IMG/VR virus record: IMGVR_UViG_3300032304_000977
Span: 1 to 64,000 of that record
Direction: 5' to 3' (one strand)
Length of the DNA stretch: 64,000 bases
DNA from: a virus
Lineage: Duplodnaviria > Heunggongvirae > Uroviricota > Caudoviricetes
Shown: positions 2,777 through 35,388 of the stretch, one piece after another
Numbering within the stretch: position 1 is the stretch's first letter
Layout of the letters: every line of letters starts with the position of its first letter
Notes under the pieces: model-generated
Seen by the model: the letters and a program-made list of their open reading frames with translations, nothing else
The model's database searches: none
Told to the model about the DNA's origin: nothing
Made by a program: the position numbers and the translations under genes

Positions 2777-2805
2777 ATTATACCTTATGGGTTGTTCGAT
2801 GTCAA
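2777..2805 (-). promoter_or_regulatory. sigma70-type early promoter TTGACA-N17-TATAAT
   Basis: On minus strand: cTTGACAtcgaacaacccataaggTATAAT. Upstream of the HExxH gene. Confidence 0.6.
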
Positions 2806-2810
2806 GCAAT

Positions 2811-4160
2811 TTATCCGAAAAATTCGTCCAAACTCTGAATTTCTTGTTTTTCGAAGTGTTCTTCGAACATATTCCTCGAAGTTTTCGCCAAATTTGGGTC
2901 GAAATTCGTTTTTGTAAGAACTTCGTTTAGATAGCCTGTTGGCTTTTGTTCGGCAAGATCAAGATAGTGCTGAGCAATTCGTTTCCGATCAAACTGTTGA
3001 ATTAGACCATAATTATTATCGACGATACGCATATATTCAGCTTCAGACATGTCGCAGTATTCAGTAATCTTATGCGCATACTCTTTTGGAGTAGAACCCT
3101 TTTTAATCATACAGTAGTTGACACCAGCCTTCAGAACTACACCATTGCCATCTTCATTATTTGAAACACCATAATTAATAGCAATTGGTACTGTTCCGAT
3201 TCGCATAGCATCTACCACAACACGATTGAAGTGTTCGCCAAATGTATTACTCCAACTTGGATCAACCAAAAATTTAGAGGAAGATAGGATTTCGTCACGT
3301 TTAGCGCCAGAGATAAAACCGAGATATTCAAAGTTGCCAGAATCCTCAGCATTTTCCCAGATACGTTTTCCGATCATCTTGTCTGTTGCATCTGGATCAT
3401 ATTGTTTTGTGCAAAAATATTCTTCTTTACACTTATCTTTTGACATCATATATGCTGCTTCAATACCATATCCCCCAACCAAAGTTTTGACCATGGGCAT
3501 GTGAGGAACAGCACGAATAAGGTCGTCCACACGCTTCCAGCGTTTAAAGGTTTGTATAGACAGGATTTTGTTCTCGCGACCAGCAAATTTTGGGGTAGGT
3601 GGAACGCCAGCGATATCCTGTGGGTTCAAAATTAACGCTCGAGGTGTGGACATAAAATCAGCTGATTCGTATGCAGCAGGATGCACGCACGCAAGACCAG
3701 CAAAATGTTTTTCGAATAAACTAATCCAAGGATATAGTTTTTTCAAATTAGCATCATGAATGATTACGATTTGTTTGGCTTTCACATTCTCAATCATTGG
3801 TAGCCATTCTTTGTATTGCTCGGTATCTTTGTTCTTAAATCCAAAGATAGATTGCCAAATTACAACATCATGTTTGTTGGCATCTTGAACGAACTGCTCA
3901 ATAGAATCTTTTACTTTATATGAATAATATGGAGCAAGCCAACCATCTCCCTGATGCACAGGAAATCCAGAACCAATACCAATCTCCCATCCCTCTTTCA
4001 ATACAGAAGGAATTTCAACAGGTTTTACCTGTTTGTTTGGCTTAAGATAAGCGAACGTCACTTCATGACCAAGTTCTTTCAACCCTGCCATTAAATGTTC
4101 ACAGTGATTGATAATACCTCCAAAATTGTTGAAGGTGTGCATCGCCATCATAATTTTCAT
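2811..4160 (-). CDS. GT-B fold glycosyltransferase (GT4-like; N-terminus resembles T4 alpha-glucosyltransferase)
   Basis: 449 aa. N-terminus MKIMMAMHTFNNFGG...GHEVTF resembles the GT-B/GT4 start (T4 a-gt MRICIFMARGLEGCG...GHEVTL). C-terminal EX7E-like block TFGEHFNRVVVDAMRIGTVPIAI. Confidence 0.6.
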   Translation of the reverse strand: MKIMMAMHTFNNFGGIINHCEHLMAGLKELGHEVTFAYLKPNKQVKPVEIPSVLKEGWEIGIGSGFPVHQGDGWLAPYYSYKVKDSIEQFVQDANKHDVVIWQSIFGFKNKDTEQYKEWLPMIENVKAKQIVIIHDANLKKLYPWISLFEKHFAGLACVHPAAYESADFMSTPRALILNPQDIAGVPPTPKFAGRENKILSIQTFKRWKRVDDLIRAVPHMPMVKTLVGGYGIEAAYMMSKDKCKEEYFCTKQYDPDATDKMIGKRIWENAEDSGNFEYLGFISGAKRDEILSSSKFLVDPSWSNTFGEHFNRVVVDAMRIGTVPIAINYGVSNNEDGNGVVLKAGVNYCMIKKGSTPKEYAHKITEYCDMSEAEYMRIVDNNYGLIQQFDRKRIAQHYLDLAEQKPTGYLNEVLTKTNFDPNLAKTSRNMFEEHFEKQEIQSLDEFFG

Positions 4161-4321
4161 TTAATATCCTTTGTGTTATTGTCTAACCATTGTTTTGCTT
4201 CTTCTTCTGAATCAAAATATGGTCCAAAAGTTTTGTGGTTTTCATCAACCCAAAAAAACGTATAGGATGGTAAACCAGCATCTCTATATTTCACCAGTTT
4301 TAGTTTAAGTCCAAAGTCCAT
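4161..4321 (-). CDS. small hypothetical protein (53 aa, not in supplied ORF track)
   Basis: ATG at 4319-4321 and TAA at 4161-4163 on the minus strand, filling the gap between two genes. Protein MDFGLKLKLVKYRDAGLPSYTFFWVDENHK... Ends 1 nt before the glycosyltransferase start. Confidence 0.25.
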
Positions 4322-5153
4322 GACGCACCTTGATCAAACGAATCATCATTTCTTCATCTTCGTCTTCGTATTGTTTTTCGAGTTTAGAACACTCATCAAG
4401 CATTTTACTTACACGCTCACGTTGTTCAGGTGTTTTCTCATCACGGAACAATCCCAGTGACTCTCCATCTTCATCTTTCTCATTACGTTTCTCATCGCAA
4501 TAAGCAGACCAACCTGATGCTTCATGAGGATCAACACGCTTAGGACGTTCAACTGTCCACCATGTATATAGATCTAGTATTTCTTGCGCTTGAATCGCTT
4601 GTTGAGTTGGCTTGCCGAATTTTTCGTCTTCGGGGGTTAGACCATAACCTTCATCAGAAATCAACTTACGTTGCCATTCTAAGTTGGCAAGACCACACTC
4701 TGGATTGCGCCATGTTCTCCAACGGAACCAACCCCAAGCCCACCATGGTGCAACAAATTTCTTGCGAGCATCTTGGTCCCATGCTACGTGCCACCATGCC
4801 AATTCTATTTCAACAAAATCTACAAGTTCATTGAAAAGACATGGAAGAAATCTATTTCCAACATCTTGCCATTGTCCTGGCTTAATATCACGAGGGTGAG
4901 CAGTAAGCTGATGAGTGCGAGTAACGAATCGGTTGTTAATATAATACTTGACAGAATAGATTTTGTCAGGCACGAACATGATGGCGTTTTGGATTATGTC
5001 AAGACCTTCTTCTGCTAACCAGTAGCGGAAAGGGTAAGACTTCTTTGCCAGTTTATTCCAAGCTGCCCATCCTTCACTTGTTTCTGCATGTGGCTTTGCT
5101 GTACCACGCAGCCAGTCAGCGAATTTCGAACAAGTCCAATAATTACTTCTCAT
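4305..5153 (-). CDS. hypothetical Trp-rich protein
   Basis: 282 aa, unusually W-rich (WWAWGWFRWRTWRN), acidic C-terminus. Sits in the operon between the 2OG oxygenase and glycosyltransferase genes. Confidence 0.45.
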   Translation of the reverse strand: MRSNYWTCSKFADWLRGTAKPHAETSEGWAAWNKLAKKSYPFRYWLAEEGLDIIQNAIMFVPDKIYSVKYYINNRFVTRTHQLTAHPRDIKPGQWQDVGNRFLPCLFNELVDFVEIELAWWHVAWDQDARKKFVAPWWAWGWFRWRTWRNPECGLANLEWQRKLISDEGYGLTPEDEKFGKPTQQAIQAQEILDLYTWWTVERPKRVDPHEASGWSAYCDEKRNEKDEDGESLGLFRDEKTPEQRERVSKMLDECSKLEKQYEDEDEEMMIRLIKVRHGLWT

Positions 5154-5176
5154 AGTTACTCCAAGTTTTATACCTA

Positions 5177-5205
5177 ATTATACCCGATTATAGTTTAAAT
5201 GTCAA
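5177..5205 (-). promoter_or_regulatory. sigma70-type early promoter TTGACA-N17-TATAAT
   Basis: Minus strand: cTTGACAtttaaactataatcgggTATAAT. The -35 overlaps the stop of the 2OG oxygenase gene. Drives the W-rich and glycosyltransferase genes. Confidence 0.6.
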
Positions 5206-6518
5206 GCAAAAAAATCAGCCAAATCTGCTTTCATTGCATTCGGGTGGTACTTCGAAAGAACTTCTTCGCCAAGTTTTTCTCGAAGATATTCATACCACTC
5301 TTGCTCTTCCCACATTCCTGGCGAAACACCATTCCACAATTTTTTCCAAAGAGGATGTTCTTTATTCAATCTACGCGATTCAACAAATTCATATCTAGCG
5401 TTTTCATATTCAAACGAACCAAGTTCAAGCATGTTTTCACGGAAGTACACAACCAATGAAATTCGTTCAGTTTGATCGTCATTTAATACGATGGGAGTGT
5501 TTCCATGGATAATTTCATGGTTGTTAACAAGTAGTAGGTCTCCTGGACGGACATTAACAGCCATACGAATTTCTGGGAACACCAAGTAACCACCTGTGAA
5601 ATTGCCAGTGTTAGACAAAACCAATAAATTAGACAAACCAGAATCCAAGTCACCAGCATCACGATGTGCTGCGGTGCGGAATGTTTTGTTAACTGTGATT
5701 GTTGTGAATGGTGTTTCTGGAACAAGGTATCGTTTGTCAAGGTTTTTCGCAGCCTCCATTTGATTATTATAACGCCAAGGTAGTAACTCTTTAAAACCAC
5801 GTGCCAAAGATTGTAAGAATGGATATGCCATTGCAAACTTCTCTGGATTGTCGCGAGTATATGTAGTCGCACGACCATAAGGGATTCGAGGATAACGATC
5901 ATACCAACCTGCGATACCAGAATCAACTGGATTGCCATAAGATGTTTCGCTGATCATCTTCATTGTTTCTTTTGTTGATTCTGCTCTCTGCGCAGGTGTT
6001 AATGGAATAATACTATCAACCCATTCGTCAAAATTAAACTTGTTTCTGAAACGTGATATAACCCAGACATTATTCTTACCAGAACCCAATGCCTTTAAAC
6101 GTGCTTCTAGTGTTGGATAGCGTGATCTAACATCTTCAATAATATCTTCATCACCGAGTTTTGCTTTTTCTGCATTTAGCAAAGCAAGCATCATTTCTTC
6201 CTGATAATTAGTAACCCACTCACGACCCTCACCAGTTACCGATGTTCCTTCTTTAATTCCAGAAGCAAGACCACGATTTTCGGTGCGAACAGCTGCTTCA
6301 CGCAAACCAACATATGCTAAATCCTGCTCTTCTTTCGAAAAAAAGTTTTTTCTAAATTTAAATGCAATGTGTCGTTCATCAGGATCTACACCATATCCAG
6401 ATGGGAGAAAACAGTCTGTGTCTTCTTCAATAAGGATATCGTAGTGGTTCTCATCAACAAACATACCGAGCAAATGCTCACAATTTTGTTTTTGATCTAG
6501 TTTAATAATCTGTGTCAT
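5202..6518 (-). CDS. 2OG-Fe(II) dioxygenase domain protein (C-terminal HxD...H...RxS)
   Basis: 438 aa. C-terminal AAHRDAGD ... HEIIHGNTPI ... RISLVVYF is the canonical 2-oxoglutarate/Fe(II) oxygenase triad plus the 2OG-binding RxS. The N-terminal ~250 aa are unassigned. Confidence 0.6.
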   Translation of the reverse strand: MTQIIKLDQKQNCEHLLGMFVDENHYDILIEEDTDCFLPSGYGVDPDERHIAFKFRKNFFSKEEQDLAYVGLREAAVRTENRGLASGIKEGTSVTGEGREWVTNYQEEMMLALLNAEKAKLGDEDIIEDVRSRYPTLEARLKALGSGKNNVWVISRFRNKFNFDEWVDSIIPLTPAQRAESTKETMKMISETSYGNPVDSGIAGWYDRYPRIPYGRATTYTRDNPEKFAMAYPFLQSLARGFKELLPWRYNNQMEAAKNLDKRYLVPETPFTTITVNKTFRTAAHRDAGDLDSGLSNLLVLSNTGNFTGGYLVFPEIRMAVNVRPGDLLLVNNHEIIHGNTPIVLNDDQTERISLVVYFRENMLELGSFEYENARYEFVESRRLNKEHPLWKKLWNGVSPGMWEEQEWYEYLREKLGEEVLSKYHPNAMKADLADFFA

Positions 6519-7897
6519 TCGAATATCTCCGATTTAATTCTTCTTCCAAATTTTGTCGCATCAAACAAAGGTGTGTCATCATCAACTTTACCTTGTCCCT
6601 CAATATGTAGTTGTGCGCTCATTTCAACATTATAAAGTCTCATATGTTTTCTATCAATACCAACCACAAATCTCTTATAAAAGTTTGGATCAGAATAACG
6701 ATTCTTCAATTGTTTTACCATAATCTGATTCATTTGATCGAGTTCTTCAGTAGCAATCAACGCAACCATCAAGTCGGCTGTCGCTGGCAAACCAAAAGAT
6801 TCAGAAGTATCTTCAAGTCCAGGATCGGTGTTAGCAAATCCAGAACGAGTCGTTTGTGTAGCGCTTACAACAGGAACTTTATATTCTCCAGCCAATCCCC
6901 TCAATTCTTCTGCGATAGACTTAATGTATGTATAAGAATTGACATTCGCTCCCATACGTAGTCTTTGGGAAGAGCAGATATTAAGGTAATCGATAAAAAT
7001 CACATCAGGGATAAACTCCCTCTTCATCTTCAACTCTTCAATCAATGCACGGAAATGACCAGCATGAGCAGAAGCAGTAGGATATTCTTTTACGATCAGT
7101 TTACCTTTTGTCTTATTACTAATCTTCTCAATCCTAGAATCAAAGATTCTTCTTTCCATTAACTTCAAACCATCCATAGTGATTTCTAAGAGGTTTGCGT
7201 CAATACGTTCAGCAATCTTTTCTTCAGCCATCTCCATAGTTATGTATAACACATTTTTACCCTGAAGCATAAAACTTGCAGCGAAATGACACATAGCCAA
7301 AGATTTACCAACACCAGTTCCAGCCAAAATAATGTTTAGAGTTTTCCTACTAAGACCACCATTTGTTATTTTGTTAAGAAGGTCGATATCGAAAGGAATT
7401 TTCTCTTCAACTCTGTGATAAAAATCATAGCGATCAGAAGCATTCTCAATATAGTCATGCCCAATATTACTATCAAACGTGACAGCCAAAGCATCGCTAA
7501 GTAAAGATACAATCGCATCTTGGTTGTGATTTTTGTCTTTTCCTTCAATAATTTTGATTGATTGGATGATTGCATTATAAACAGCTCTGTCTTTACAAAA
7601 TTTCTCTGTAGTATCAGTTATCCAATCTTCATTTGTTTTCTCTTCGCTAAGAGAATCCAAAGTCTCGTAAGATCCCTTTACCTCATGTTCAGTTACGTCT
7701 GTCCTATTGCTAATTTCAAGTTTTAATACATCAACAGTAGGAACAGTATTATACTTGTTGAAGAAATTGTTATATTCTTCAAAAATAATCTTATCAGTTC
7801 TATCCGTAAAGTATTCAGGAAATAAGAAAGGAAACACCTTTCTTGCATATTCTTCATTACATAACAGATTTGAAAAAATTTGATTCTCAATCCTCAT
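6515..7897 (-). CDS. 41: DnaB-family replicative DNA helicase (T4 gp41 homolog)
   Basis: 460 aa. Walker [14 protein letters not shown], DnaB-like C-terminal RecA fold. Synteny next to uvsX as in T4-like phages. Confidence 0.85.
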
Positions 7898-8945
7898 TCA
7901 AAACTTCCTCCTCTTCAACAGCAGATTCTACAACATCACTACCATAATTATACTTCTTCTTACAATATGTGTCAAGTTGTGATAAGATATCTTCTGTGAA
8001 AAACTCGGAAGGATTGTTTGCAATATTTTTGCCGAAAACTTTACGACCATCGTGAACTTCAATTCGTCCACCTTGCGCTTTCCAGATTCCTGCTTCAACA
8101 GCAAGGTCGGTAAGACCATGATAACGATCAAGTCCCTTAGTGAAAGACAACTTTGTTTCAACCATAGACTTCTCACGTGTGAATCTTGATTTCTCAAGTT
8201 TACATTTAATGATGTTACCAACAACCTCAGTTCCATCCTTATCCTGTGACTTAGATAGGAACACAATTGTTGAGGCAGCATATTTCAAACCATCACCACC
8301 ACCCATCGTTTTGGTTGGCATGTATGCGCCAACAACTGCATATGTGTGATTCGTAACAACCATCGCTACATCTAGTTTCGCCAACTTCAAAGATAAGACC
8401 CTAAACGCACCTCGAATCAACTGCGCACGGGTCATGTCTCGAGTATCTTTCCCCTCAAGCGTATCTTCCATTTCTTTTGAAGTTGATAGCATACCCAATG
8501 AATCGAGGAAAAACATCAATGGTGGTCTATCTTTCTTGGATGTCTTTTCATAAGCATCTAGAATCTTGGTCGCTTGAGTGCGAAACTCTTGAACAGTTGA
8601 AACAGGAACAATCATAAAACGCTTGGTGTCGATACCACGTTCAACAAGCATTTCTTTGTTTAATGCTCCCTCTGTTTCGAAGTAAATGACTCCAGCTTGT
8701 TCATTAGTGCGTAGAAAGTTGTTCGCAATACCCAAAGCATAGAATGTTTTTCCAGTGGAAGACTCACCAGCCAGAGCTGTAACTTTGTTCCCAGGAAGAC
8801 CACCATAAATGCTACCACTGAGAAGAGCATTAAGGGTATAAGAACCAGTATCGATAAACTTAGTTGTATCACCAACAACGCCATCATCAGCCAATCCCGC
8901 ATACTCATTGTCTAACTCCTTAACTATATTCTTCAAAAAACTCAT
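7887..8945 (-). CDS. uvsX: UvsX RecA-like recombinase
   Basis: 352 aa. RecA core with P-loop GESSTGKTF. Located between gp43 and gp41 as in T4-like genomes. Confidence 0.85.
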
Positions 8946-12963: not shown

Positions 12964-13161
12964 TCAGTTTAGCAATCCATTTTCAACTTCACTGAAGACT
13001 ATTTTATTCTCATTCATCTTTTTTGTCAAAATTTTTTCTTCAACCAATTCATATACACGTTTTTCGATATACTTGAGTTCTTCCATAGTCAACGAATCTG
13101 GTGGTAATTTTCCTGACAAAACATTCTCAGCAATAGCGATACGTTCTGATGACATTCTCAT
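12964..13161 (-). CDS. small hypothetical protein
   Basis: 65-aa ORF in minus-strand gene array. Confidence 0.3.
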   Translation of the reverse strand: MRMSSERIAIAENVLSGKLPPDSLTMEELKYIEKRVYELVEEKILTKKMNENKIVFSEVENGLLN

Positions 13162-13286
13162 TTGACATTTTCCTTCACAACTGTTTTTGTTTCATTTACA
13201 AATTTATCTAGGTATGTAGCAACACCAGAAAAACCAATTGTTGCTACAACGATTCCAAAAAATACACCAAAAATAAAGTTTAGCAT
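13155..13286 (-). CDS. small membrane protein (43 aa, not in supplied ORF track)
   Basis: Minus-strand ATG at 13284-13286. Product MLNFIFGVFFGIVVATIGFSGVATYLDKF... has a single predicted TM helix. Coordinates approximate. Confidence 0.25.
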
Positions 13287-13507
13287 AGTATCCTCTGTAG
13301 TTCATATTGCGCTTCACGAATAGAATTTACTTTTTTTCCATTGATTTTGATATTTTTGTGTGTCCGAATCACAACATTTGTGTTGCTGATTGACAATGTG
13401 GTTTCTTCACGTGTTTTTGCTTTTCCAACACGTTCACCAGATGCGAAAAACAGTGTATCAAACAACGCATCGGAAGCAACCTTACGCATAAAAAAATTAT
13501 TCGCCAT
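13280..13507 (-). CDS. hypothetical protein
   Basis: 75-aa ORF directly downstream of the consensus early promoter at 13541-13569, with a GGGGA RBS-like sequence. Confidence 0.35.
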   Translation of the reverse strand: MANNFFMRKVASDALFDTLFFASGERVGKAKTREETTLSISNTNVVIRTHKNIKINGKKVNSIREAQYELQRILC

Positions 13508-13540: not shown

Positions 13541-13569
13541 ATTATACTATAAACGTGAATTTATGTCAA
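13541..13569 (-). promoter_or_regulatory. sigma70-type early promoter TTGACA-N17-TATAAT
   Basis: Minus strand: aTTGACAtaaattcacgtttatagTATAAT. Confidence 0.6.
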
Positions 13570-13576
13570 TACCTAT

Positions 13577-13597
13577 AACCCTACTGGCTGTAGGGTC
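13577..13597. repeat. ACCCTAC-N5-GTAGGGT hairpin family, copy 1
   Basis: aaccctacTGGCTgtagggtc followed on plus strand by ATTTTTT. About 8 bp from the -35 of the promoter at 13541-13569. Confidence 0.6.
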
Positions 13598-17330: not shown

Positions 17331-17996
17331 TTATTCAGCTGTTGAACCTGCCTCAACAGCAACATAGTAACAAAGTTCTGCGCTTGTGTTTTTGAAACGA
17401 CAAATCTTCATCTTAGCAATGGTAACATCGTATGCTCCTGGAAGCATTTTTAGGTTTTCTACTTTCAAATAAGCTGTAAACTTCTTGTCCGATTTACCTA
17501 GATCGATTTCGAACTTATTGCTCATTACATTTTTCACATCAACCACACGTGCAACAACTGTATTACCGTCGCCAACAACTGTGAGATCATTCACCTTTAA
17601 AATGCCAGCCGAGCGAATGATATGATCTAAATCTGATGCTGCTAATTTGAAAGTGATATTGCTTTCATCTTCTGGAAAAACAATAGATTTAGATGGCGCT
17701 TTTAGAATGTTTGCTTCTGCTGCTTTGTATTTAATAACATTCTTACCTTCCTTAACTTCAACAATGTCACCATTGAATGCGAAGTCGGGACTCTCGAACA
17801 ACGAAACAACACCCAAAAATTCATTGACGTCATAAATGCCAAAGTCTTGTGGGAATGTCTCAGAAACAGTTACTTCAGCGAAGACATTGTTTCCCTCATT
17901 TCGAGTTGACAATTTGTTTCCCTGTTTGATCAACAAATTCATGTTGATTGAAGCAAAGTTCTTAACGAGTGTTTGCGTTTCTTTTGATAATTTCAT
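17331..17996 (-). CDS. 45: sliding clamp (gp45 homolog)
   Basis: 221 aa. N-terminus MKLSKETQTLVKNFASIN matches the T4 gp45 start MKLSKDTTALLKNFATIN. Preceded by a consensus early promoter. Confidence 0.85.
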   Translation of the reverse strand: MKLSKETQTLVKNFASINMNLLIKQGNKLSTRNEGNNVFAEVTVSETFPQDFGIYDVNEFLGVVSLFESPDFAFNGDIVEVKEGKNVIKYKAAEANILKAPSKSIVFPEDESNITFKLAASDLDHIIRSAGILKVNDLTVVGDGNTVVARVVDVKNVMSNKFEIDLGKSDKKFTAYLKVENLKMLPGAYDVTIAKMKICRFKNTSAELCYYVAVEAGSTAE

Positions 17997-18025: not shown

Positions 18026-18054
18026 ATTATACCCCAAATGTGTGTTTGTGTCAA
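18026..18054 (-). promoter_or_regulatory. sigma70-type early promoter TTGACA-N17-TATAAT
   Basis: Minus strand: tTTGACAcaaacacacatttggggTATAAT. Upstream of gp45. Confidence 0.6.
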
Positions 18055-18056
18055 AT

Positions 18057-18857
18057 TTATTTTCCAATCATCAAACCAGTCATATTGCTTGGAACAACAA
18101 TCGTTTGAACCTTGCCATTCTTAATACCCTCAGAGATATTCAATGCAGCTTGTGCGTTCATAAAAGCAATGGAACTGGCAGAGTTATTTGCAAGAGCAGC
18201 CATGCGTTCAGCTTCTTTTCTGGCAGTCTGTACTTCAACTTCTTTCTGCTTATATTCGTTCTTGGCACGAACCAGAGCATTGGCAGATTCCACAACAGAG
18301 TCAGCTGGGACAATGTTACGAATCAATACCTGACCAATAACCAAACTACCATCTAACTTTTCTTCAGCCAAAGACTTTTGAATCTGCTCACGAATAGATT
18401 GTTCCATAACCTGACGATTATCAGCCATATCTAGAGCATCATACTTACGTGCTTCTTTGTAGATTGCATTACGAGTAGCCTGAACGATGTAGTTATACAT
18501 CAAGTAGATGTCGCCATTATGGCGAGCATGGAATGCTTGGCTTTTCTGGCTATACAACTCAGCAACTTGTGCTTGGTTAATGTTGTAGATAACTACAGCA
18601 TCAAAGTCTTTCATTGTACTGTTATCTTTGGCAACAGGAGTCATATCATCCAGTTTAACATTAACGTCTTTGACTGGGAAAGTCAAGACATCGCCAATCA
18701 AAACTTGATTGAACGATCCAGGAAGCAACTCACCCTGCTTAACCTGTTTATCAAAACCAACACGAACACCTACCTCGCCAGTTTCAATTCGAGTGCAACC
18801 TGTAGAAAGAACTGCTGCTGCCAAAACACCGATAGTAAAAACTTTTTTCATATTCAA
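18057..18857 (-). CDS. SPFH/band-7 (prohibitin/stomatin-like) lipoprotein
   Basis: 266 aa. Lipoprotein signal MNMKKVFTIGVLAAAVLSTGC, SPFH core with a coiled-coil tail (VRAKNEYKQKEVEVQTARKEAERMAA). Confidence 0.65.
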   Translation of the reverse strand: MNMKKVFTIGVLAAAVLSTGCTRIETGEVGVRVGFDKQVKQGELLPGSFNQVLIGDVLTFPVKDVNVKLDDMTPVAKDNSTMKDFDAVVIYNINQAQVAELYSQKSQAFHARHNGDIYLMYNYIVQATRNAIYKEARKYDALDMADNRQVMEQSIREQIQKSLAEEKLDGSLVIGQVLIRNIVPADSVVESANALVRAKNEYKQKEVEVQTARKEAERMAALANNSASSIAFMNAQAALNISEGIKNGKVQTIVVPSNMTGLMIGK

Positions 18858-18861
18858 TCCT

Positions 18862-19037
18862 TAAAATAAAACAACGACAATAGTAAGAAACACAATAACG
18901 AGAAGAGCGATCGTTACGCTGTAAATGGTAGTCTTTGCGACTTCCCATTTCTCTTTGCCACTAAACTTACGGAAGATTTCAATTCCCGTATAGAATATAA
19001 CAAAAAGAAATATAAATGCAATTAACATTTTAAACAT
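18862..19037 (-). CDS. small two-TM membrane protein (58 aa, not in supplied track)
   Basis: Minus-strand ATG at 19035-19037, stop at 18862-18864. Product MFKMLIAFIFLFVIFYTGIEIFRKFSGKEKWEVAKTTIYSVTIALLVIVFLTIVVVLF. Sits immediately upstream of the SPFH gene. Confidence 0.35.
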
Positions 19038-19038
19038 T

Positions 19039-19371
19039 TTATTCCTTAGAATACTTTACATCATGCTCATAAAGAAACATTAGACAACACATTGCATGAG
19101 CCAAATGATTCTTACCAGTTTCGGGATCATTTTGTTCTCCCTCTTTCCATGCCCAGAGGTGTCTTTGCATTGCATCAAAGTACCTTCGTTTAGAATCTGG
19201 AACATTTTTCCAATTATCTGGTTCGTATTTCTCGGCACCAAATGTTAGAATTTCTACAGTTGCTTTTAATGCAAGTGGTGGTAGTAAACCATATTGTAGT
19301 TTACCACCATCAAATTTTCTACCACCTGTTGTGGCATTTTGAGATTTTTTAATTTCTTCTTTAGTAGCCAT
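19039..19371 (-). CDS. conserved phage protein of unknown function (start trimmed to MATKEE)
   Basis: Track ORF 19039..19401. The first 10 codons overlap the hairpin at 19394-19417, so Met11 is the likelier start. Contains a KFDGGKLQYGLLPP block that I recognise only vaguely from other phage proteins. Confidence 0.4.
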   Translation of the reverse strand: MATKEEIKKSQNATTGGRKFDGGKLQYGLLPPLALKATVEILTFGAEKYEPDNWKNVPDSKRRYFDAMQRHLWAWKEGEQNDPETGKNHLAHAMCCLMFLYEHDVKYSKE

Positions 19372-19779: not shown

Positions 19780-20175
19780 TCAGTTGCTAGACACAAGTTC
19801 TTGCTTGATCGTTTCTAGTTCTTCGTCGTAAGAATCGTCTTCAATAACAGATTCTTCAATAATTTTTTCGAATTTACTTTTCTCAGCAGCAGCTGTTTTT
19901 GTAACAACTTTAGCGGAAGCAGTATCAAGTGGGAGGGCGAACACGCCACGACCAACTTTATTTTTGGCAGTCAACCAGTTGGGGAAACCAACTTTCTCGC
20001 CACCAGCTGCACGCTTTTCATTGAGAGTCCAGTAAATAGACTCAAGTTCTTTACGAGAAACCTGTCCTGTTTTTGCAACAGTAGGGAATTCGCGAACAAC
20101 AGCATCAACGAAACGCTTTTGGGCTTTAGTAAGATCAGAATATTTCAACATAACAATTTCCTTTCGGGTTTTCAA
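19780..20175 (-). CDS. small protein sharing an N-terminal domain with the CobS-like ATPase
   Basis: 131 aa. The segment TGQVSRKELESIYWTLNEK...FPNWLTAKNKVGRGVFAL parallels SGTVSRQQIMSTMEALNTTKYPTWLMQNKVGRGLYAI in the downstream 391-aa ATPase. Preceded by a consensus promoter and followed by a hairpin terminator. Confidence 0.45.
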   Translation of the reverse strand: MKTRKEIVMLKYSDLTKAQKRFVDAVVREFPTVAKTGQVSRKELESIYWTLNEKRAAGGEKVGFPNWLTAKNKVGRGVFALPLDTASAKVVTKTAAAEKSKFEKIIEESVIEDDSYDEELETIKQELVSSN

Positions 20176-20187: not shown

Positions 20188-20216
20188 ATTATACTACGAT
20201 TTAACATTAATGTCAA
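20188..20216 (-). promoter_or_regulatory. sigma70-type early promoter TTGACA-N17-TATAAT
   Basis: Minus strand: tTTGACAttaatgttaaatcgtagTATAAT. Confidence 0.6.
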
Positions 20217-21398: not shown

Positions 21399-21427
21399 AT
21401 TATACATTAAAATTGAATTAATGTCAA
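21399..21427 (-). promoter_or_regulatory. sigma70-type early promoter TTGACA-N17-TATAAT
   Basis: Minus strand: cTTGACAttaattcaattttaatgTATAAT. Upstream of the cobS-like gene. Confidence 0.6.
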
Positions 21428-22283: not shown

Positions 22284-22478
22284 TTATCCCTTTTTAAAAG
22301 CAGCAACCGCACGAGGAAAACCATTCGCGAAACCTGAATTACCAGACACGAAACCACGAGAATTTTTGCAAGTCATTTTTGACTTTGGGGTTTTCGTTGG
22401 TTTGTATACAGTAACAGTAACATTATGTACTGGGTCAATGTAAGTGGTCAAAACATTTCGTGGTTTCTTCGTAGTCAT
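22284..22478 (-). CDS. small basic protein
   Basis: 64 aa. Preceded by AAGGAA RBS and the consensus promoter at 22508-22536. Confidence 0.35.
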   Translation of the reverse strand: MTTKKPRNVLTTYIDPVHNVTVTVYKPTKTPKSKMTCKNSRGFVSGNSGFANGFPRAVAAFKKG

Positions 22479-22483: not shown

Positions 22484-22537
22484 TTCCTTTTCAATCATCA
22501 TAAGATAATTATACGTCCAAACCGAATTAATGTCAAG
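22484..22537. repeat. 54-bp exact direct repeat, copy A (promoter plus leader)
   Basis: ttccttttcaatcatcataagataattatacgtccaaaccgaattaatgtcaag is identical to 34962-35015. Confidence 0.8.
22508..22536 (-). promoter_or_regulatory. sigma70-type early promoter TTGACA-N17-TATAAT
   Basis: Minus strand: cTTGACAttaattcggtttggacgTATAAT. Lies within the 54-bp exact repeat. Confidence 0.6.
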
Positions 22538-22551
22538 TCCCCCGAATAATA

Positions 22552-22571
22552 ACCCTACAGACTGTAAGGGT
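22552..22571. repeat. ACCCTAC-N5-GTAGGGT hairpin family, copy 2 (imperfect)
   Basis: accctacAGACTgtaagggt, next to the promoter at 22508-22536 and the 24-bp palindrome. Confidence 0.5.
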
Positions 22572-22572
22572 A

Positions 22573-22596
22573 TTAAGTTAGTGGTCACTTACTTAA
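22573..22596. repeat. 24-bp palindrome TTAAGTTAGTGGTCACTtACTTAA (one mismatch)
   Basis: Near-perfect inverted repeat immediately 3' of hairpin copy 2. Confidence 0.6.
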
Positions 22597-25002: not shown

Positions 25003-25031
25003 ATTATACACCGAAATGAAATAAATGTCAA
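25003..25031 (-). promoter_or_regulatory. sigma70-type early promoter TTGACA-N17-TATAAT
   Basis: Minus strand: cTTGACAtttatttcatttcggtgTATAAT. Upstream of the vWA gene. Confidence 0.6.
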
Positions 25032-25251: not shown

Positions 25252-25992
25252 TTACACCACGAATCCTGTAGTATCTTTCTTAGCACGTCCCTTCGCCTTC
25301 AATCCAACGATAACATTTTTTTTGTCAAGAAAACGCAAATCGGTTTCATCGCCGTTGATAACAGGACGACCAAAATAGGTTTCAGGGAGTGAGCGGAAAA
25401 CAGCAGCCACATTCATACCAGCTGACGCAGCCAGACGAGTATCCATGTCATTACCATCTGCTTTAGAAAATGTAAGATGATAATTCTTTAGATGAGCAAC
25501 CTTACGATTGCGCATTTTTGTGTAGTCATAGAACTGCACTTCAGGAAACATCTGGAAAATGTTACGACCCTCTAGGATCTCATACTTTTCCCATGCAATA
25601 TCGCTAGTACCATTGAGACGGAAGCAAGGAATCAATCCTTTCTTTTCGGCTTGCTTGATTGCGAGTGTGATGTCTTTGAGCAGTTTACTCATAAACTCAG
25701 TACGATTTTCGTAAAATAATTTTGTTTTGCGAATACGTGCTTGCTGAATCACGTTGGTGGTTTCGCCTTTCTTGAACATACCACCACGACCAGCTGTGTT
25801 CAAACATGCAGCTGTGCAACCAGCAGTTCTTTTTGGACAAGTTTCGTAGCCAGATAAATTGGCAGGGGCGAGATGAAGGATGAAGGACATGTATCCTTTC
25901 TTTTCGCCTTTGAGTAACTTTGGGTTTCCAGTAGAAAGTAAATTCATATAAACCTCAAACCAATTTGCTGATTGAAACGTCGTATGACACAC
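25252..25992 (-). CDS. Cys-cluster protein (possible metal/Fe-S binding)
   Basis: 246 aa with YETCPKRTAGCTAACLNTAGRGG (C-x6-C-x3-C). Family not identifiable by eye. Confidence 0.4.
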   Translation of the reverse strand: MCHTTFQSANWFEVYMNLLSTGNPKLLKGEKKGYMSFILHLAPANLSGYETCPKRTAGCTAACLNTAGRGGMFKKGETTNVIQQARIRKTKLFYENRTEFMSKLLKDITLAIKQAEKKGLIPCFRLNGTSDIAWEKYEILEGRNIFQMFPEVQFYDYTKMRNRKVAHLKNYHLTFSKADGNDMDTRLAASAGMNVAAVFRSLPETYFGRPVINGDETDLRFLDKKNVIVGLKAKGRAKKDTTGFVV

Positions 25993-26167
25993 GATTCATC
26001 TTGTGGTCATAGACATGCATTCTGGAAGAAATGCCAATTCCATTAAACAAATTCTCAAACAGTTGACGCACAACAGTATTTACACTCACCGAGTCACCAA
26101 CGCCACGTTTGATAGCAGCAGCACTGGTATAAAACGAAACGCCATTCACAATCACACGATATTTCAT
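25955..26167 (-). CDS. small hypothetical protein
   Basis: 70-aa ORF immediately downstream of the promoter at 26197-26225. Overlaps the next gene by 38 nt. Confidence 0.3.
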   Translation of the reverse strand: MKYRVIVNGVSFYTSAAAIKRGVGDSVSVNTVVRQLFENLFNGIGISSRMHVYDHKMNRVSYDVSISKLV

Positions 26168-26196: not shown

Positions 26197-26225
26197 ATTA
26201 TGCCTGGAAACCGAATAAATGTCAA
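26197..26225 (-). promoter_or_regulatory. sigma70-type early promoter TTGACA-N17-CATAAT
   Basis: Minus strand: cTTGACAtttattcggtttccaggCATAAT. Confidence 0.55.
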
Positions 26226-26230
26226 GCATT

Positions 26231-26251
26231 AACCCTACAGCTGGTAGGGTT
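26231..26251. repeat. ACCCTAC-N5-GTAGGGT hairpin family, copy 3
   Basis: aaccctacAGCTGgtagggtt, 5 bp from the -35 of the promoter at 26197-26225. Confidence 0.6.
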
Positions 26252-29226: not shown

Positions 29227-29255
29227 AATTATACACGTGTCGCTGATTAATGTCA
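29227..29255 (-). promoter_or_regulatory. sigma70-type early promoter TTGACA-N17-TATAAT
   Basis: Minus strand: cTTGACAttaatcagcgacacgtgTATAAT. Confidence 0.6.
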
Positions 29256-29362
29256 AGAGATATGTCCGAAGTTCGAAAGGAAGAAGAAAAAGTCTCGGGG
29301 GACAAGCCGAAAGGGACCCGACCCGAAAAAAAAGGACCCGAATTTAATAGTCCATTTTTTGA

Positions 29363-29372: not shown

Positions 29373-29402
29373 TTATGGGGTGCTGAATGTCATTTAGTCT
29401 TC

Positions 29403-29579
29403 GTCACTCAGACTCATCATCCAGTACTGATTCTCCTGCTCTAGCCATTCCATGTATTCTTCATGTTCTTCTTGGTATAGCATAGCCACATACTCTTTTA
29501 CTCTTTCTTCTCTCTCTTGCTCAGCAATCTCTTGTAACAACGCATTCACATCATCCATGGTAGTAGTCATAGTGCTAGT
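29403..29579 (-). CDS. small highly acidic protein (58 aa, below track threshold)
   Basis: Minus-strand ORF MTTTMDDVNALLQEIAEQEREERVKEYVAMLYQEEHEEYMEWLEQENQYWMMSLSDED. About one third Asp/Glu. Coordinates approximate. Confidence 0.3.
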
Positions 29580-29740
29580 CCTTAGTCTTTCTCTTAGAAA
29601 CCTCTACATGGTTATTATACAGTTCTTCCTCATAGTTGTCAAATAAATCTCCGAACACATGTGATTCTTCGAATGTCTCTTCATCAGAGATCAACACATG
29701 CATGGGAACACCCAACAGGGAGGATGCATCAGCGAGGGTC
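29570..29740 (-). CDS. small acidic protein (about 56 aa, below track threshold)
   Basis: Minus-strand ORF MTLADASSLLGVPMHVLISDEETFEESHVFGDLFDNYEEELYNNHVEVSKRKTKD. Coordinates approximate. Confidence 0.25.
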
Positions 29741-29760: not shown

Positions 29761-30693
29761 TTAAGCAGTCAACATATAAGTAGCCAGATCTTTCCACTCG
29801 GTGTTGGCAGCACGAACCTTGGACACAGAGATCAGCGTACGCAGGGAGATTTCTTTGCACTCATCTTTGATCTCACGGATCAGCGCCAGCGAGTCAGCGA
29901 TGATAGACTTATCGTACTCAGGGAGAAACTCATCAGACATAGCGATGTGCTCCATGCGCTCAATCTTCTGATCAGTTGTCATGCTCAGATCAATCATCAT
30001 TGAACGTGAGCGGATGGCTTGGTCAATCTTACCATCATCCATATTAGAGATGAAGATAATACGACCTTCAAAGTTGAAGCTCTTAGGCAGGTCTTCATCT
30101 TTGAAGTCAGCGTTCCAGGAAATGATGCGCTTACCGTAGCTGTCAAGAGCAGACTTCAGAATGTTCAGCGCAACTGGGTCTTTGAGAATGCTATCGCAGT
30201 CATCAAACACGATGATGCCTTTGTTGTTCTCAAACAAAGTGCGGTACAAACCCTTGGGAGTAGAGTAACCCTTGACCATGCGATAGCACTTGCGCATGTT
30301 CAGAATAGAACCAACAGCAAACTCACCGAGATCCGAGATGTCCTTCAGACCATTGCTCTCAAGTGTCTTGGTGACAGTGTAAGTCTTACCGAGACCACCT
30401 TCGCCAGTGATAATAGCGGAGGGCTGTACACCAGTCGCGACCATGTTCACCAACTTCTCAACAAAGCCGAAGCGAGTGTTAATGCCAAACTTGTCGGCTT
30501 TGGGTTCAGTCACGGGAGTGGTACCAACGATCTGAGCAAATGCCATTTTAGTACCAGTGATCTTCTTGTAGTGATATTCAACCACCTGTTCGAGACCAGC
30601 ACCAGTTTTGCCAGTCTTCACAATCTTGTCGCCAAGACGGATCTCAGATTTACCATCACGGAAGGTCTTCACAGAGACTTTAAGAGCATTCAT
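29761..30693 (-). CDS. AAA+/P-loop ATPase of unknown function (start trimmed to MNALKV)
   Basis: Track ORF 29761..30753 starts inside the -35 box. ATG at 30691-30693 has an AGGA RBS. Walker A GEGGLGKTY, Walker B IIVFDDCD, sensor-like IIFISNMD. Coding GC visibly higher than surrounding genes. Confidence 0.6.
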   Translation of the reverse strand: MNALKVSVKTFRDGKSEIRLGDKIVKTGKTGAGLEQVVEYHYKKITGTKMAFAQIVGTTPVTEPKADKFGINTRFGFVEKLVNMVATGVQPSAIITGEGGLGKTYTVTKTLESNGLKDISDLGEFAVGSILNMRKCYRMVKGYSTPKGLYRTLFENNKGIIVFDDCDSILKDPVALNILKSALDSYGKRIISWNADFKDEDLPKSFNFEGRIIFISNMDDGKIDQAIRSRSMMIDLSMTTDQKIERMEHIAMSDEFLPEYDKSIIADSLALIREIKDECKEISLRTLISVSKVRAANTEWKDLATYMLTA

Positions 30694-30724: not shown

Positions 30725-30753
30725 ATTATGCCTGAGAACCGAATTAATAGCAA
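30725..30753 (-). promoter_or_regulatory. sigma70-type early promoter TTGCTA-N17-CATAAT (variant)
   Basis: Minus strand: aTTGCTAttaattcggttctcaggCATAAT. Same conserved spacer TTAATTCGG as the other copies. Upstream of the AAA ATPase. Confidence 0.5.
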
Positions 30754-30758
30754 TAGAA

Positions 30759-30780
30759 AAACCCTACGTATAGTAGGGTT
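30759..30780. repeat. ACCCTAC-N5-GTAGGGT hairpin family, copy 4
   Basis: aaccctacGTATAgtagggtt adjacent to the promoter at 30725-30753. Confidence 0.6.
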
Positions 30781-30788
30781 ATCTTAAG

Positions 30789-30950
30789 TTAGTTAGTACT
30801 TACTTCCAGGTCTATATTATAAATCGGGGTTTCGCCCGAATCGTTATATTCTAGCCATTTCTGGATTTCTTTTATAGCCGATTTATAATTATCAAATTCA
30901 GAAACAAAAAATTTAACCCCAAACTCGTCCGTAATATAAAGTTTAAACAT
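30789..30950 (-). CDS. small hypothetical protein (start trimmed to MFKLYI)
   Basis: Track ORF 30789..30983 starts inside the -10 hexamer 30971-30976. The internal Met is clear of the promoter. Confidence 0.3.
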   Translation of the reverse strand: MFKLYITDEFGVKFFVSEFDNYKSAIKEIQKWLEYNDSGETPIYNIDLEVSTN

Positions 30951-30970: not shown

Positions 30971-30999
30971 GATTATAACTCATCTTTGGATTAATGTCA
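30971..30999 (-). promoter_or_regulatory. sigma70-type early promoter TTGACA-N17-TATAAT
   Basis: Minus strand: aTTGACAttaatccaaagatgagtTATAAT. Confidence 0.6.
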
Positions 31000-31022
31000 A
31001 TCCGATGTAAGTAAGCACTAAC

Positions 31023-31379
31023 TTACCTCCACAGATCTCCATCCCTGTCTATCTCATACGAGAATCCAGGATCCTCAGGGGGAATAACGCCAAACTCCTC
31101 CATCTCAGCATACAGTTGCTCGGCTGTCTTTCCATCCGCACGTTTCTGCTGAGTAATAATCCACTTGCTTTTCTCAGCAGACTCTTTACCACTTGCCATA
31201 TGCGCACGATTACCATCCGCGATCTTAGTCTTTGTTTCCTGTGAGTGCGATCTTAACGTAGCAGCACAACTACGAGAGCAGTTTGGTCCACGTTTCCTAT
31301 GCTCAGCACCGCAAACAGGACACTCTTTTAATCTATAAACTCCTGGCATGTTTCTCCTTACGCAACTGTTCGAACACAA
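31023..31379 (-). CDS. zinc-ribbon protein
   Basis: 118 aa with CPVCGAEHRKRGPNCSRSC. GC-elevated coding. Confidence 0.4.
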   Translation of the reverse strand: MCSNSCVRRNMPGVYRLKECPVCGAEHRKRGPNCSRSCAATLRSHSQETKTKIADGNRAHMASGKESAEKSKWIITQQKRADGKTAEQLYAEMEEFGVIPPEDPGFSYEIDRDGDLWR

Positions 31380-31439: not shown

Positions 31440-31658
31440 TCATGCTTCACTCCAATATGTATAAGAATCATTCACATAATAATCTTCCTCTTCCATTGCA
31501 TGCTTTAAGCAATAAGGATGATCACCTGCGAATTGTGTATGTCTAATATGTACTGCCATTGCTCCACATTCTAAACATCTCTCATATTCTTTACTTGCAG
31601 CCTCTTCAGCTTGCTCAACTATTCTATTGTTCAGCTTTGTATAATCAATTTTGCTCAT
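31440..31658 (-). CDS. zinc-ribbon protein, YC-x-[KE]H family
   Basis: 72 aa. CLECGAMAVH...HPYCLKHAMEEED. Confidence 0.4.
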   Translation of the reverse strand: MSKIDYTKLNNRIVEQAEEAASKEYERCLECGAMAVHIRHTQFAGDHPYCLKHAMEEEDYYVNDSYTYWSEA

Positions 31659-31665: not shown

Positions 31666-32016
31666 TTAACTCTCTCTTCCTGCTATAAATGCAGCTTGCA
31701 ACCATACCATTATACGCTTGGCTTTCTCAGGTGTCAACTCACAATCAGTGAAGAATCTATCACTACGATATGAATATCCAGATGCTCCTGCGTCACTTTC
31801 AAGTTCATTAAACCAATCAAAGAACGCCAACTCTTTTCTATTCTCCCAATAGGATGTATCTGTATCCTGACAGAAGTCATCTTCAAAAATAGCATGTTCA
31901 TCGCAGTAATTCATATCTCCGTGAACTGTTTTTCTTATCCAATCGACCTTGTTATGACAGTCGGGAGAGCAGCAAAAAAGAGCCGTAGTCTTTTTCATTG
32001 GTTTGGTTGCGGTCAT
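31666..32016 (-). CDS. zinc-ribbon protein, YC-x-[KE]H family
   Basis: 116 aa. CCSPDCHNKVDWIRKTVHGDMNYCDEHAIFEDD. Paralogous to the previous gene. Confidence 0.4.
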   Translation of the reverse strand: MTATKPMKKTTALFCCSPDCHNKVDWIRKTVHGDMNYCDEHAIFEDDFCQDTDTSYWENRKELAFFDWFNELESDAGASGYSYRSDRFFTDCELTPEKAKRIMVWLQAAFIAGRES

Positions 32017-33510: not shown

Positions 33511-33514
33511 CATA

Positions 33515-34505: not shown

Positions 34506-34738
34506 TAAACAACTTTCTTCATAGCATTAACACCACTTGCCATAATCAACAAACCAGCGATCGCCAGTCCAGTACAGACCAACACATCATTTTCAGGAAC
34601 ATCAAGACCACCAACTGCACCAAACACAATCAGTAGACCAACAATCATTCGAATCGAACCCTTCATAATTTTCTCCTTACTTAGACAAGTTGATAATGCG
34701 ACCATCATATTCCATGAAAGAAACTTCCATCGGAACAA
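34505..34738 (-). CDS. small membrane protein
   Basis: 77 aa, two hydrophobic helices. Confidence 0.35.
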   Translation of the reverse strand: MFRWKFLSWNMMVALSTCLSKEKIMKGSIRMIVGLLIVFGAVGGLDVPENDVLVCTGLAIAGLLIMASGVNAMKKVV

Positions 34739-34961
34739 ACACAGTTTTCGCTATACGGGAAGAACGAACACCCTTACATTTTTTACCATCAAACACATCG
34801 GTCATCACATAGATTTTGAAAGATGCGTATGGCACTTCACGAGGATTTATTTCTTCAATTCTACCTTCAACGTAGCAGTCGTTGCGACCAAGCATCGGTT
34901 TGAAGTCATAAGCACGGATTACATCACCAACTGTAGCAATATTTGCGTTTTTCATATTCAT
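34677..34961 (-). CDS. hypothetical protein (start trimmed to MNMKNAN)
   Basis: Track ORF 34677..34979. AAGGAA RBS precedes the internal ATG. Downstream of the promoter copy at 34986-35014. Confidence 0.35.
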   Translation of the reverse strand: MNMKNANIATVGDVIRAYDFKPMLGRNDCYVEGRIEEINPREVPYASFKIYVMTDVFDGKKCKGVRSSRIAKTVFVPMEVSFMEYDGRIINLSK

Positions 34962-35015
34962 TTCCTTTTCAATCATCATAAGATAATTATACGTCCAAAC
35001 CGAATTAATGTCAAG
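34962..35015. repeat. 54-bp exact direct repeat, copy B
   Basis: Identical to 22484-22537. Contains the RBS, -10, spacer and -35 of the promoter. Confidence 0.8.
34986..35014 (-). promoter_or_regulatory. sigma70-type early promoter TTGACA-N17-TATAAT
   Basis: Minus strand: cTTGACAttaattcggtttggacgTATAAT. Identical to the copy at 22508-22536 (part of the 54-bp repeat). Confidence 0.6.
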
Positions 35016-35352
35016 CGAATAACCCTACACGCTGTAGGGTCTTTTTGAACGTGTTCAGGGCTGGCTGCAGGTCGTTGATCAGCTGGGTTTCGTAAGCATG
35101 AGCATCTTTTTTGCCACGCACTACTGTGATCACCTGCGTATCCCAGTTTTCGTAGGTACGGATGGCTTCTGACAGTGCCCAGTCTTTGTCTTGACGATGA
35201 GCACGATATTGATGCTGTTGCCAGCGAGTCGCAAGGGTTTTAAGTTGGGCACGTCCACGCATCACTGTTACACCAATGTAGCTGTCGCCTGTGTCAAGAC
35301 AGGTCAGCTGGTATATCAGGTGGTTACGATCAGTTCGTTTTTTCCTATTCAT
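35011..35352 (-). CDS. GIY-YIG family nuclease (homing-endonuclease-like, catalytic domain only)
   Basis: Track ORF 35011..35388 starts with TTG inside the -35 box. Met13 at 35350-35352 is likelier. Motif HLIYQLTCLDTGDSYIGVT...R...RWQQH...YETQLIN fits GIY-YIG (GIY...YIG...R...H...E...N). Its stop codon lies inside the next promoter's -35. Confidence 0.55.
   Translation of the reverse strand: MNRKKRTDRNHLIYQLTCLDTGDSYIGVTVMRGRAQLKTLATRWQQHQYRAHRQDKDWALSEAIRTYENWDTQVITVVRGKKDAHAYETQLINDLQPALNTFKKTLQRVGLFA
35021..35041. repeat. ACCCTAC-N5-GTAGGGT hairpin family, copy 5
   Basis: aaccctacACGCTgtagggtc adjacent to the promoter at 34986-35014. Lies within the last codons of the GIY-YIG ORF. Confidence 0.6.
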
Positions 35353-35359
35353 ACAGTCT

Positions 35360-35388
35360 ATTATAGGGGAAAACCGAATTATTGTCAA
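35360..35388 (-). promoter_or_regulatory. sigma70-type early promoter TTGACA-N17-TATAAT
   Basis: Minus strand: cTTGACAataattcggttttccccTATAAT. Upstream of the GIY-YIG gene; would give a nearly leaderless transcript. Confidence 0.55.

Follow-up and report, generated by a model that had tools for sequence, protein, structure and literature searches.

Here we present an analysis of a 64,000-nucleotide (nt) stretch of Caudoviricetes DNA, positions 1 to 64,000 of the IMG/VR record IMGVR_UViG_3300032304_000977 (hereafter the window), centred on a series of near-identical consensus promoters that precede its genes and on the hairpins that accompany some of them. The window is part of the genome of a T4-like myovirus and carries all of its genes on the minus strand. 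Genes for replication and recombination functions (gp43 polymerase, gp41 helicase, gp46/gp47, CobS and gp45) are followed by those for the late sigma factor gp55 and a UvsW-like helicase and, from 43.7 kb, by a late module encoding the major capsid protein (gp23), scaffold, portal (gp20), sheath (gp18) and terminase (gp17). The closest matches to gp43 are found in cyanomyoviruses, at only ~55% amino-acid identity, and a near-DNA search of the GenBank phages returned only a 100-bp cobS match to cyanophages, so that the phage has no close cultured relative.

Consensus promoters and late-module motifs

The sequence TTGACA-N17-TATAAT occurs 15 times in the window without mismatch, against 0.04 occurrences expected from dinucleotide-preserving shuffles, and all 15 copies lie on the minus strand, spanning positions 2777 to 35388. 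A first-pass annotation, made from the letters of the DNA, had described repeated near-identical sigma70-consensus promoters confined to the minus strand and standing directly ahead of minus-strand genes, and both parts of that description are borne out. With up to one mismatch allowed, the number of matches rises to 22 (1.2 expected), of which 19 are on the minus strand; at 17 of these 19, a Shine-Dalgarno (SD)-like sequence and an ATG that opens a minus-strand open reading frame (ORF) follow 21-50 nt past the -10 element. The exception to this spacing is a leaderless GIY-YIG gene, described below. A position weight matrix (PWM) built from 16 sites and scanned over both strands of the window, a check that the annotation had named, recovered two further minus-strand sites, a degraded copy at 30725-30753 and a one-mismatch site before the gp55 gene. 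Besides the 15 exact promoters, the coding strand carries three to four such one-mismatch or degraded copies. Two other one-mismatch minus-strand sites, 6629-6657 and 13001-13029, are located within ORFs and may be weak promoters or chance matches.

The promoters are unevenly distributed. The small-ORF region at 26-36 kb contains eight sites, and the capsid and tail module at 43.7-64 kb contains none; the last one, at 40.6 kb, precedes gp55, and the late module, although encoded on the same strand, is without consensus promoters. It carries NATAAATA-like motifs instead, and the heptamer ATAAATA is found 11 times on the minus strand and not once on the plus strand. Copies of ATAAATA in the 43-61 kb interval (e.g. 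43605, 46153, 50373, 52520 and 60087) include several that closely precede late structural genes. The T4 late consensus, TATAAATA, was also considered and showed no enrichment, the motifs found at the late genes being NATAAATA-like. These motifs suggest NATAAATA-type late promoters, and overall the promoters are divided as is usual in T4-type phages, with early ones for the host sigma factor and late ones for gp55.

Only one strong promoter-like site was found on the plus strand, at 43606-43634 (TTGACA-N17-TAAAAT, with a G before the -10 and a PWM score of 18.3). It is directed, in antisense, towards the 3' end of the major capsid gene (43739-45100, minus strand), and may represent either an antisense promoter or a coincidental match.

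Upstream hairpins, leaderless genes and relatives

Six of the promoters, those with upstream ends at 13569, 22536, 26225, 30753, 35014 and 35388, are preceded at 5-13 nt 5' of the -35 by a hairpin (hairpin A) of the form ACCCTAC-loop-GTAGGGTTATT, in which the 3' arm GTAGGGT is followed by TATT or TTTT. The sequence GTAGGGTT occurs six times on the minus strand of the window, in every case directly 5' of a -35. As RNA, the A hairpins fold into stems of 7-9 bp with energies of about -9 to -14 kcal/mol (-14.3 kcal/mol for the cassette at 13541-13596). The linker between hairpin and promoter reads TTATT(c)GC; A+T content reaches 75-88% at -5 to -8 from the -35 (background, 62%), and the linker is short, with no long A-tract. 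A second, AT-rich hairpin (hairpin B; AAGTTAGT-loop-ACTAACTT) is present in four copies, at 22575-22594, 30786-30805, 31005-31028 and 35417-35436. Each copy of it stands just upstream of hairpin A or of a promoter, and the pattern gave 10 strand-wise matches against 2 expected. Aligned, the whole cassette measures ~90-110 bp, beginning with the hairpins and ending, past the promoter, at the SD sequence. An Rfam scan of the whole window returned no family match, so the hairpins are not a curated RNA family. The upstream stem-loop, which the first-pass annotation did not see, identifies the element as a composite cassette of the PeSL type, PeSLs (promoter-early stem-loops) being small intergenic cassettes of T4-type phages that join a strong sigma70-like promoter to an adjacent stem-loop shown to terminate transcription (Arbiol et al. 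2010, PMC2839356; Comeau et al. 2014, PMC4122927). All promoters and cassettes are listed in Table 1.

Table 1. Promoters, cassettes and the variable gene slot of the window, with the gene that each promoter is predicted to drive
Feature	Coordinates	Strand	Anatomy and predicted gene
Exact promoter	2777..2805	-	ORF 2041-2742; ATG 34 nt past the -10
Exact promoter	5177..5205	-	ORF 4305-5153
Exact promoter	7947..7975	-	Within 3' end of upstream ORF; gp41-like helicase gene 6515-7897
PeSL-like cassette	13541..13596	-	Hairpin ACCCTAC-loop-GTAGGGT ~13578-13596, exact promoter 13541-13569; 75-aa (amino-acid) ORF 13280-13507
Exact promoter	18026..18054	-	gp45 sliding-clamp gene 17331-17996
Variable gene slot	18064..19045	-	Band_7-like 266-aa ORF and 58-aa ORF; directly upstream of the gp45 promoter
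Exact promoter	20188..20216	-	123-aa ORF 19780-20151
Exact promoter	21399..21427	-	CobS-like gene; probable start ATG 21372, not TTG 21399
PeSL-like cassette	22508..22594	-	Hairpin B 22575-22594, hairpin A 22553-22569, exact promoter 22508-22536; 64-aa ORFan 22284-22478
Exact promoter	25003..25031	-	769-aa peptidase-like gene 22661-24970
PeSL-like cassette	26197..26250	-	Hairpin A ~26232-26250, promoter TTGACA-N17-CATAAT 26197-26225; 70-aa ORF 25955-26167
Exact promoter	29228..29256	-	ORFan region; followed by a 20-aa hydrophobic micro-ORF
Exact promoter	29614..29642	-	58-aa ORF 29394-29570
Degraded PeSL-like cassette	30725..30805	-	Hairpin B 30786-30805, hairpin A 30760-30780, then TTTTT; AAA-like ORF 29761-30693
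Exact promoter with hairpin-B-like repeat	30972..31028	-	Promoter 30972-31000, repeat 31005-31028; 53-aa ORF 30789-30950
Exact promoter	31709..31737	-	Within 3' end of upstream ORF; 72-aa ORF 31440-31658; spacer least like the others
PeSL-like cassette	34986..35040	-	Hairpin A 35022-35040, exact promoter 34986-35014; 92-aa ORF 34677-34955
PeSL-like cassette	35360..35438	-	Hairpin B ~35415-35438, hairpin A 35396-35412, exact promoter 35360-35388; GIY-YIG endonuclease gene 35011-35352
One-mismatch promoter	40634..40662	-	TTGACT-N17-TATAAT; ahead of gp55 late-sigma gene 40052-40609

In the degraded cassette the promoter itself (30725-30753) is weakened to TTGCTA-N17-CATAAT, with a TTAATTCGG spacer. 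The micro-ORF behind the 29228-29256 promoter (~29206-29145, MTFIFILVCIGLYIRYKRLQ) stands where a conventional gene would be. As the annotation had pointed out, four ORF starts lie inside promoters; the likely true starts, at 21372, 30693, 30950 and 35352, correct calls in which the longest-ORF rule had placed a TTG or ATG start within the promoter.

The GIY-YIG gene, recognized by its Pfam domain (E = 6.9e-07), lies between two cassettes. Its ATG is 7 nt past the -10 of the 35360-35388 promoter, in agreement with the earlier description of it as nearly leaderless, and at its other end the tail of the ORF runs through the 35022-35040 hairpin, with its stop codon in the -35 hexamer of the 34986-35014 promoter. 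One public gene call omitted the gene entirely. A homolog in a related contig (L011) starts 6 nt past the -10 of a similar cassette, and in a set of 210 dereplicated promoters from related contigs TATAAT is followed by an ATG at a distance of exactly 6 nt in 29, every other offset between 0 and 9 giving 0-8. Such leaderless genes have N-termini that align with the N-terminus of the window ORF 68-1279. Leaderless genes in seven contigs (L009, L022, L007, L045, L006, L080 and L114) resemble different families (KLKHxTHxED-type; DIDDTLFHT HAD-like) and share a similar N-terminal decapeptide, M-K-x-[FL]-[KR]-[ED]-[YF]-[IL]-x-E. The shared decapeptide may mark cassette homology that reaches into the first codons, or a constraint of leaderless translation. 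The recurrence of leaderless starts suggests that genes of these phages are systematically overlooked, or given wrong starts, by standard gene callers.

Relatives of the window were collected by a DNA motif scan of IMG/VR, a peptidase-based search having given one distant locus only. The composite pattern GTAGGGTTA-N2-12-TTGACA-N17-TATAAT was found in at least 117 IMG/VR contigs, many of them collinear with the window at 65-87% nucleotide identity. In the GenBank phages (INPHARED), a distant search with a 96-bp cassette found none that carries it. The composite motif gave 7 matches in 596 Gb of species-representative bacterial and archaeal genomes, about the chance number as estimated for 21 fixed bases. 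These seven were considered as pointers to the host and were rejected, being scattered metagenome-assembled genomes at chance level with no host signal.

Orthologous promoters in the 65-87% relatives keep 12/12 hexamer positions and the G at -13 while their spacers drift: the invariant spacer positions out of 17 numbered 3, 7, 5 and 12 in four ortholog sets, the 12/17 set consisting of two sequences only and the others of at least four orthologs. The ortholog of the 7947-7975 promoter in L030, for instance, has kept both hexamers. An upstream hairpin accompanies 22% of 224 dereplicated exact promoters from the window and related loci, against 3.8% of control positions. Most of these hairpins share an ACCCTA/TAGGGT core, which is 9-27-fold enriched even in promoters that had not been selected by motif; since the composite seed pattern fixed the 3' arm, part of the apparent stem conservation is ascertainment. 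A wobble test for selection on a sense-strand RNA hairpin (16 G.U against 5 A.C) was discarded as evidence, because the seed fixed the 3' arm and most transitions in the 5' arm give wobbles anyway. The public contig L134 terminates at window position 34986, precisely where the block of repeated promoter sequence has its edge, which suggests that repeated cassettes break short-read assemblies of these phages.

Gene-content differences beside the cassettes and the competing readings

The promoters P22536 and P35014 share a block identical at 53/53 bp, from TTGACA through AAAAGGAA (34962-35014 at the latter), set in unrelated flanks, and the L036 ortholog of P22536 matches it at 48/53. Paralogs that are closer than orthologs point to recent duplication or gene conversion; the first-pass annotation had likewise proposed duplication of promoter cassettes, and this proposal is supported by the shared block and by the confinement of one spacer motif, TTCGG, to a single hairpin-bearing cassette subfamily. 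Differences in gene content adjoin the promoters as well. In four contigs whose gp45 is 100% identical to that of the window, the DNA downstream of the gp45 promoter matches the window at 99.6-100%. In three of the four, with 99.6-99.8% downstream identity, homology stops 9-10 bp 5' of the gp45 -35 and resumes where the MazG-like gene ends. The intervening slot is empty in L127 and L128, contains the Band_7 gene and the 58-aa ORF in the window and in L129 (100% identical to the window throughout), and contains an Asp/Arg hydroxylase gene in L130. Furthermore, the 64-aa ORFan behind the cassette at 22536 is missing from that site in L036, and a homolog of it (73-75% amino-acid identity) stands behind another cassette in L030 and L015, in a slot equivalent to 13.5 kb of the window, where the cassette at 13569 is placed to drive an unrelated 75-aa ORF. 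ORF 25252-25992 is also absent from L036.

We interpret the consensus promoters as the early promoters of an uncultured T4-like myovirus, a subset of them embedded in PeSL-like promoter-terminator cassettes, and assign this reading a probability of roughly 0.8. The sites would be read by unmodified host RNA polymerase with its primary, sigma70-type factor right after infection, and would drive replication genes (gp41, gp45, CobS and others) together with many small ORFans. About one-third of the promoters would belong to the composite cassette, in which an optional AT-rich hairpin B is followed by hairpin A, the promoter and a short leader with SD sequence and ATG. Hairpin A probably serves the upstream gene as an intrinsic terminator or attenuator, which would make each small gene an insulated, self-expressed module. 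The repeated 45-90-bp cassettes would also offer homology to phage recombination, through which modules could be duplicated, deleted, swapped and relocated.

Several observations weigh against this interpretation. The U-tract that follows the hairpin is short, UUAUU in all but the 30760 copy (UUUUU), and terminator strength is uncertain. A hairpin accompanies just 6-7 of the ~19 promoters, the ~12 others being plain early promoters rather than PeSLs. The G at -13 and the A at spacer position 4 are present in 10/11 hairpin-less promoters, so that cassette ancestry does not explain these positions. The indels and relocations beside cassettes are consistent with cassette-mediated exchange but fall short of proof, because whole-gene indels have intergenic breakpoints under any mechanism. 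Finally, a PeSL-by-PeSL deletion variant of the GIY-YIG module was sought among the identical public contigs, and only identical copies were found.

The same rearrangements could arise if the unit of hairpin and promoter were actively mobile, with the stem CCCTAC/GTAGGG recognized by a phage recombinase or nuclease dedicated to moving promoter-ORF modules; the free-standing GIY-YIG protein, encoded between two cassettes, would be one candidate enzyme, and the repeats would then not be passive substrates of homologous recombination. We consider this unlikely, although the stem is conserved in sequence and not in structure alone across many divergent contigs, including promoters not selected by motif, and one widespread locus keeps the 3' arm and TTATTGC despite a poorly pairing 5' arm. 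The GIY-YIG gene sits exactly between two similar cassettes, and homologs stand directly behind such a cassette in L011 and, on a reading of the DNA only, apparently in L052; an equivalent speculation was offered by Arbiol et al. for the GGGG/CCCC stems of RB49 (PMC2839356). However, the conservation is in part the product of the seed noted above, ~50 bp of homology, which the cassettes supply, suffices for T4-type recombination (PMC2839356), no excision or insertion variant of the GIY-YIG module was found among the identical contigs, and most promoters are without a hairpin. The larger proposition that the stem together with TTATTGC-TTGACA is a protein recognition site, and that the cassettes form an active site-specific gene-shuffling system in a large uncultured T4-like clade, perhaps driven by GIY-YIG, seems to us similarly improbable.

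The bases around the hexamers bear on a different alternative, that of an additional factor. The first-pass annotation had taken the first nine spacer bases to be conserved in most copies and had raised a MotA-like factor as a possible reason. The TTCGG spacer, however, occurs at only five sites (22536, 26225, 30753, 35014 and 35388), all of them hairpin A promoters within one cassette subfamily. In the 16-site alignment the spacer favours T at position 1 (11/16), T at position 2 (10/16), A at position 4 (15/16) and T at position 5 (12/16), and among the flanks a G stands just 5' of TATAAT in 14/16; the C said to precede the -35 is there in 10/16. Across all copies, conservation beyond the hexamers is limited to TTGACA-ttwAT and the G directly 5' of TATAAT. 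Mean pairwise spacer identity was 6.99/17, against a null of 4.50 +/- 0.18 for random 17-mers, and 6.32 against 4.52 with the hairpin subfamily removed, the residual signal residing in positions 1-5 and 17 and positions 6-16 being at background. When the copies are aligned, a check that the annotation had proposed, spacer identity stays above the null and the long motif proves to be limited to one cassette subfamily. The extra conserved positions carry little information apart from the G at -13 and the A at spacer position 4. The long spacer similarity (TTAATTCGG...) is, judging from the alignments, a matter of common ancestry or gene conversion within one cassette subfamily and not a requirement of promoter recognition.

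It is very unlikely, in our estimate, that the extended motif (gc-TTGACA-ttwAT ... G-TATAAT-t) defines a phage-specific promoter class that is read or boosted by an extra phage-encoded factor. Such a factor would account for the G 5' of TATAAT and the A at spacer position 4, both retained in promoters without a hairpin, and for a G at -13 that is invariant across orthologous promoter sets while the remaining spacer drifts. In T4 early promoters the positions beyond the hexamers have been tied to Alt-modified RNA polymerase (PMC1524935). Yet the hexamers, and the 17 bp between them, conform exactly to the sigma70 consensus, alone enough for maximal host recognition, and an extended consensus particular to the lineage is a known property of T4-type early promoters (PMC1524935). 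The extra positions also vary among related lineages, which fits lineage drift or tuning rather than a fixed factor site, and the long TTCGG motif belongs to a single subfamily. In middle promoters the -35 is replaced by a Mot box, (a/t)(a/t)(a/t)TGCTTtA, centred near -30, and both MotA and AsiA are needed. No such replacement is seen here, every site carrying its -35 element, TTGACA in the exact copies, 17 bp from the -10, and tblastn with the T4 MotA and AsiA proteins gave no match below E = 0.99 in the window (64 kb of a ~150-160-kb genome) or in 118 related loci. The G at -13 and the spacer A may be subject to some accessory effect, Alt-like or other, and nothing demands one.

That the matches are chance products of an AT-rich genome (G+C 35-42%, in which weak sites matching 9/12 hexamer positions number 69 against 53.8 in shuffles, a slight excess only) or artefacts of repeat assembly has a negligible probability and is ruled out by the enrichment of exact sites, their complete strand bias, their placement ahead of genes and the recurrence of these sites in independent assemblies and diverged relatives.

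The interpretation as early promoters with PeSL-like cassettes would provide an early-promoter and terminator map for a T4-like lineage that is present in many metagenomes without a cultured representative, along with several corrected gene starts. It would carry the PeSL concept, that of regulatory cassettes which also act as linkers in the recombination of ORFan modules, over to relatives of the cyanomyoviruses, and the near-identical contigs that differ only in a promoter-adjacent slot constitute a natural data set on cassette-directed shuffling. The current understanding of phage transcription is unchanged by these results.

Comparison with known phage systems

The architecture described here is the already-known one of PeSLs in T4-type phages; what is new is the uncultured lineage and its own stem sequence. 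PeSLs also contain an AT-rich linker and the SD sequence and start codon of the downstream gene, are concentrated in hyperplastic regions, and have an implied role in the insertion, deletion and replacement of ORFans and in the formation of mini-circles (PMC2839356, PMC4122927). Like those of RB49/phi1, PST/T4 and nt-1/KVP40, the cassettes of the window combine a near-perfect promoter with a stem-loop immediately 5', perhaps a short AT-rich linker, and an SD sequence and ATG at the 3' end; they lie between genes, at high density among small ORFans and more sparsely in the core gene blocks, with none in the structural module; and their copies are homologous enough to recombine, with indels, replacements and relocations between close relatives adjoining them.

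There are also differences. The PeSL promoters of RB49/phi1 are near-perfect copies of TTGACA-N17-TATAAT and the stem sequence of PeSLs is lineage-specific (PMC2839356, PMC4122927); the stem here is ACCCTAC/GTAGGGT, against Gn/Cn in RB49, A3-4G3/C3T3-4 in nt-1 and AGNA/TCNT in PST. Some copies in the window have a second AT-rich hairpin (AAGTTAGT/ACTAACTT) and some cassettes are fused to leaderless genes, neither being a feature of the known PeSLs. The first 50 kb of RB49 contain 4 exact and 14 one-mismatch promoters at 17-bp spacing, with a flanking consensus of gtg-TTGACA ... ATAAT-acacacatc, whereas the window has 15 exact promoters in 33 kb. Terminator activity has been measured for known PeSLs, whereas the cassettes here are known from their sequence, and unlike the phages in which PeSLs were described, this one represents an uncultured lineage, related most closely, among cultured phages, to cyanomyoviruses.

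The early promoters of T4, RB69, RB49, 44RR and Aeh1 (Nolan et al. 2006, PMC1524935) resemble those of the window in being of the sigma70 type, in having an extended consensus particular to each lineage together with a highly conserved -10, and in standing ahead of both conserved early genes and novel ORFs. The -35 here is the canonical TTGACA, as in RB49, and not the GTTTAC of T4 (PMC1524935); also, no clear A-rich UP element is seen at -40 to -44, the extra conservation consisting instead of the G at -13 and the ttwAT after the -35. To the middle promoters that depend on MotA and AsiA the likeness extends only to the presence, in a T4-like phage, of a repeated motif beyond the -10, the -35 here being that of the sigma70 consensus.

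With cyanomyoviruses the phage has in common a T4-like backbone, the auxiliary gene cobS and NATAAATA-like late motifs. S-SKS1, the closest cultured relative, contains a single exact TTGACA-N17-TATAAT in the syntenic 42.5 kb, against 15 here, and a low density of PeSLs has been reported for the cyanophage S-PM2 (PMC4503421). Dense perfect promoters are therefore a trait of this uncultured lineage rather than of cyanomyoviruses generally.

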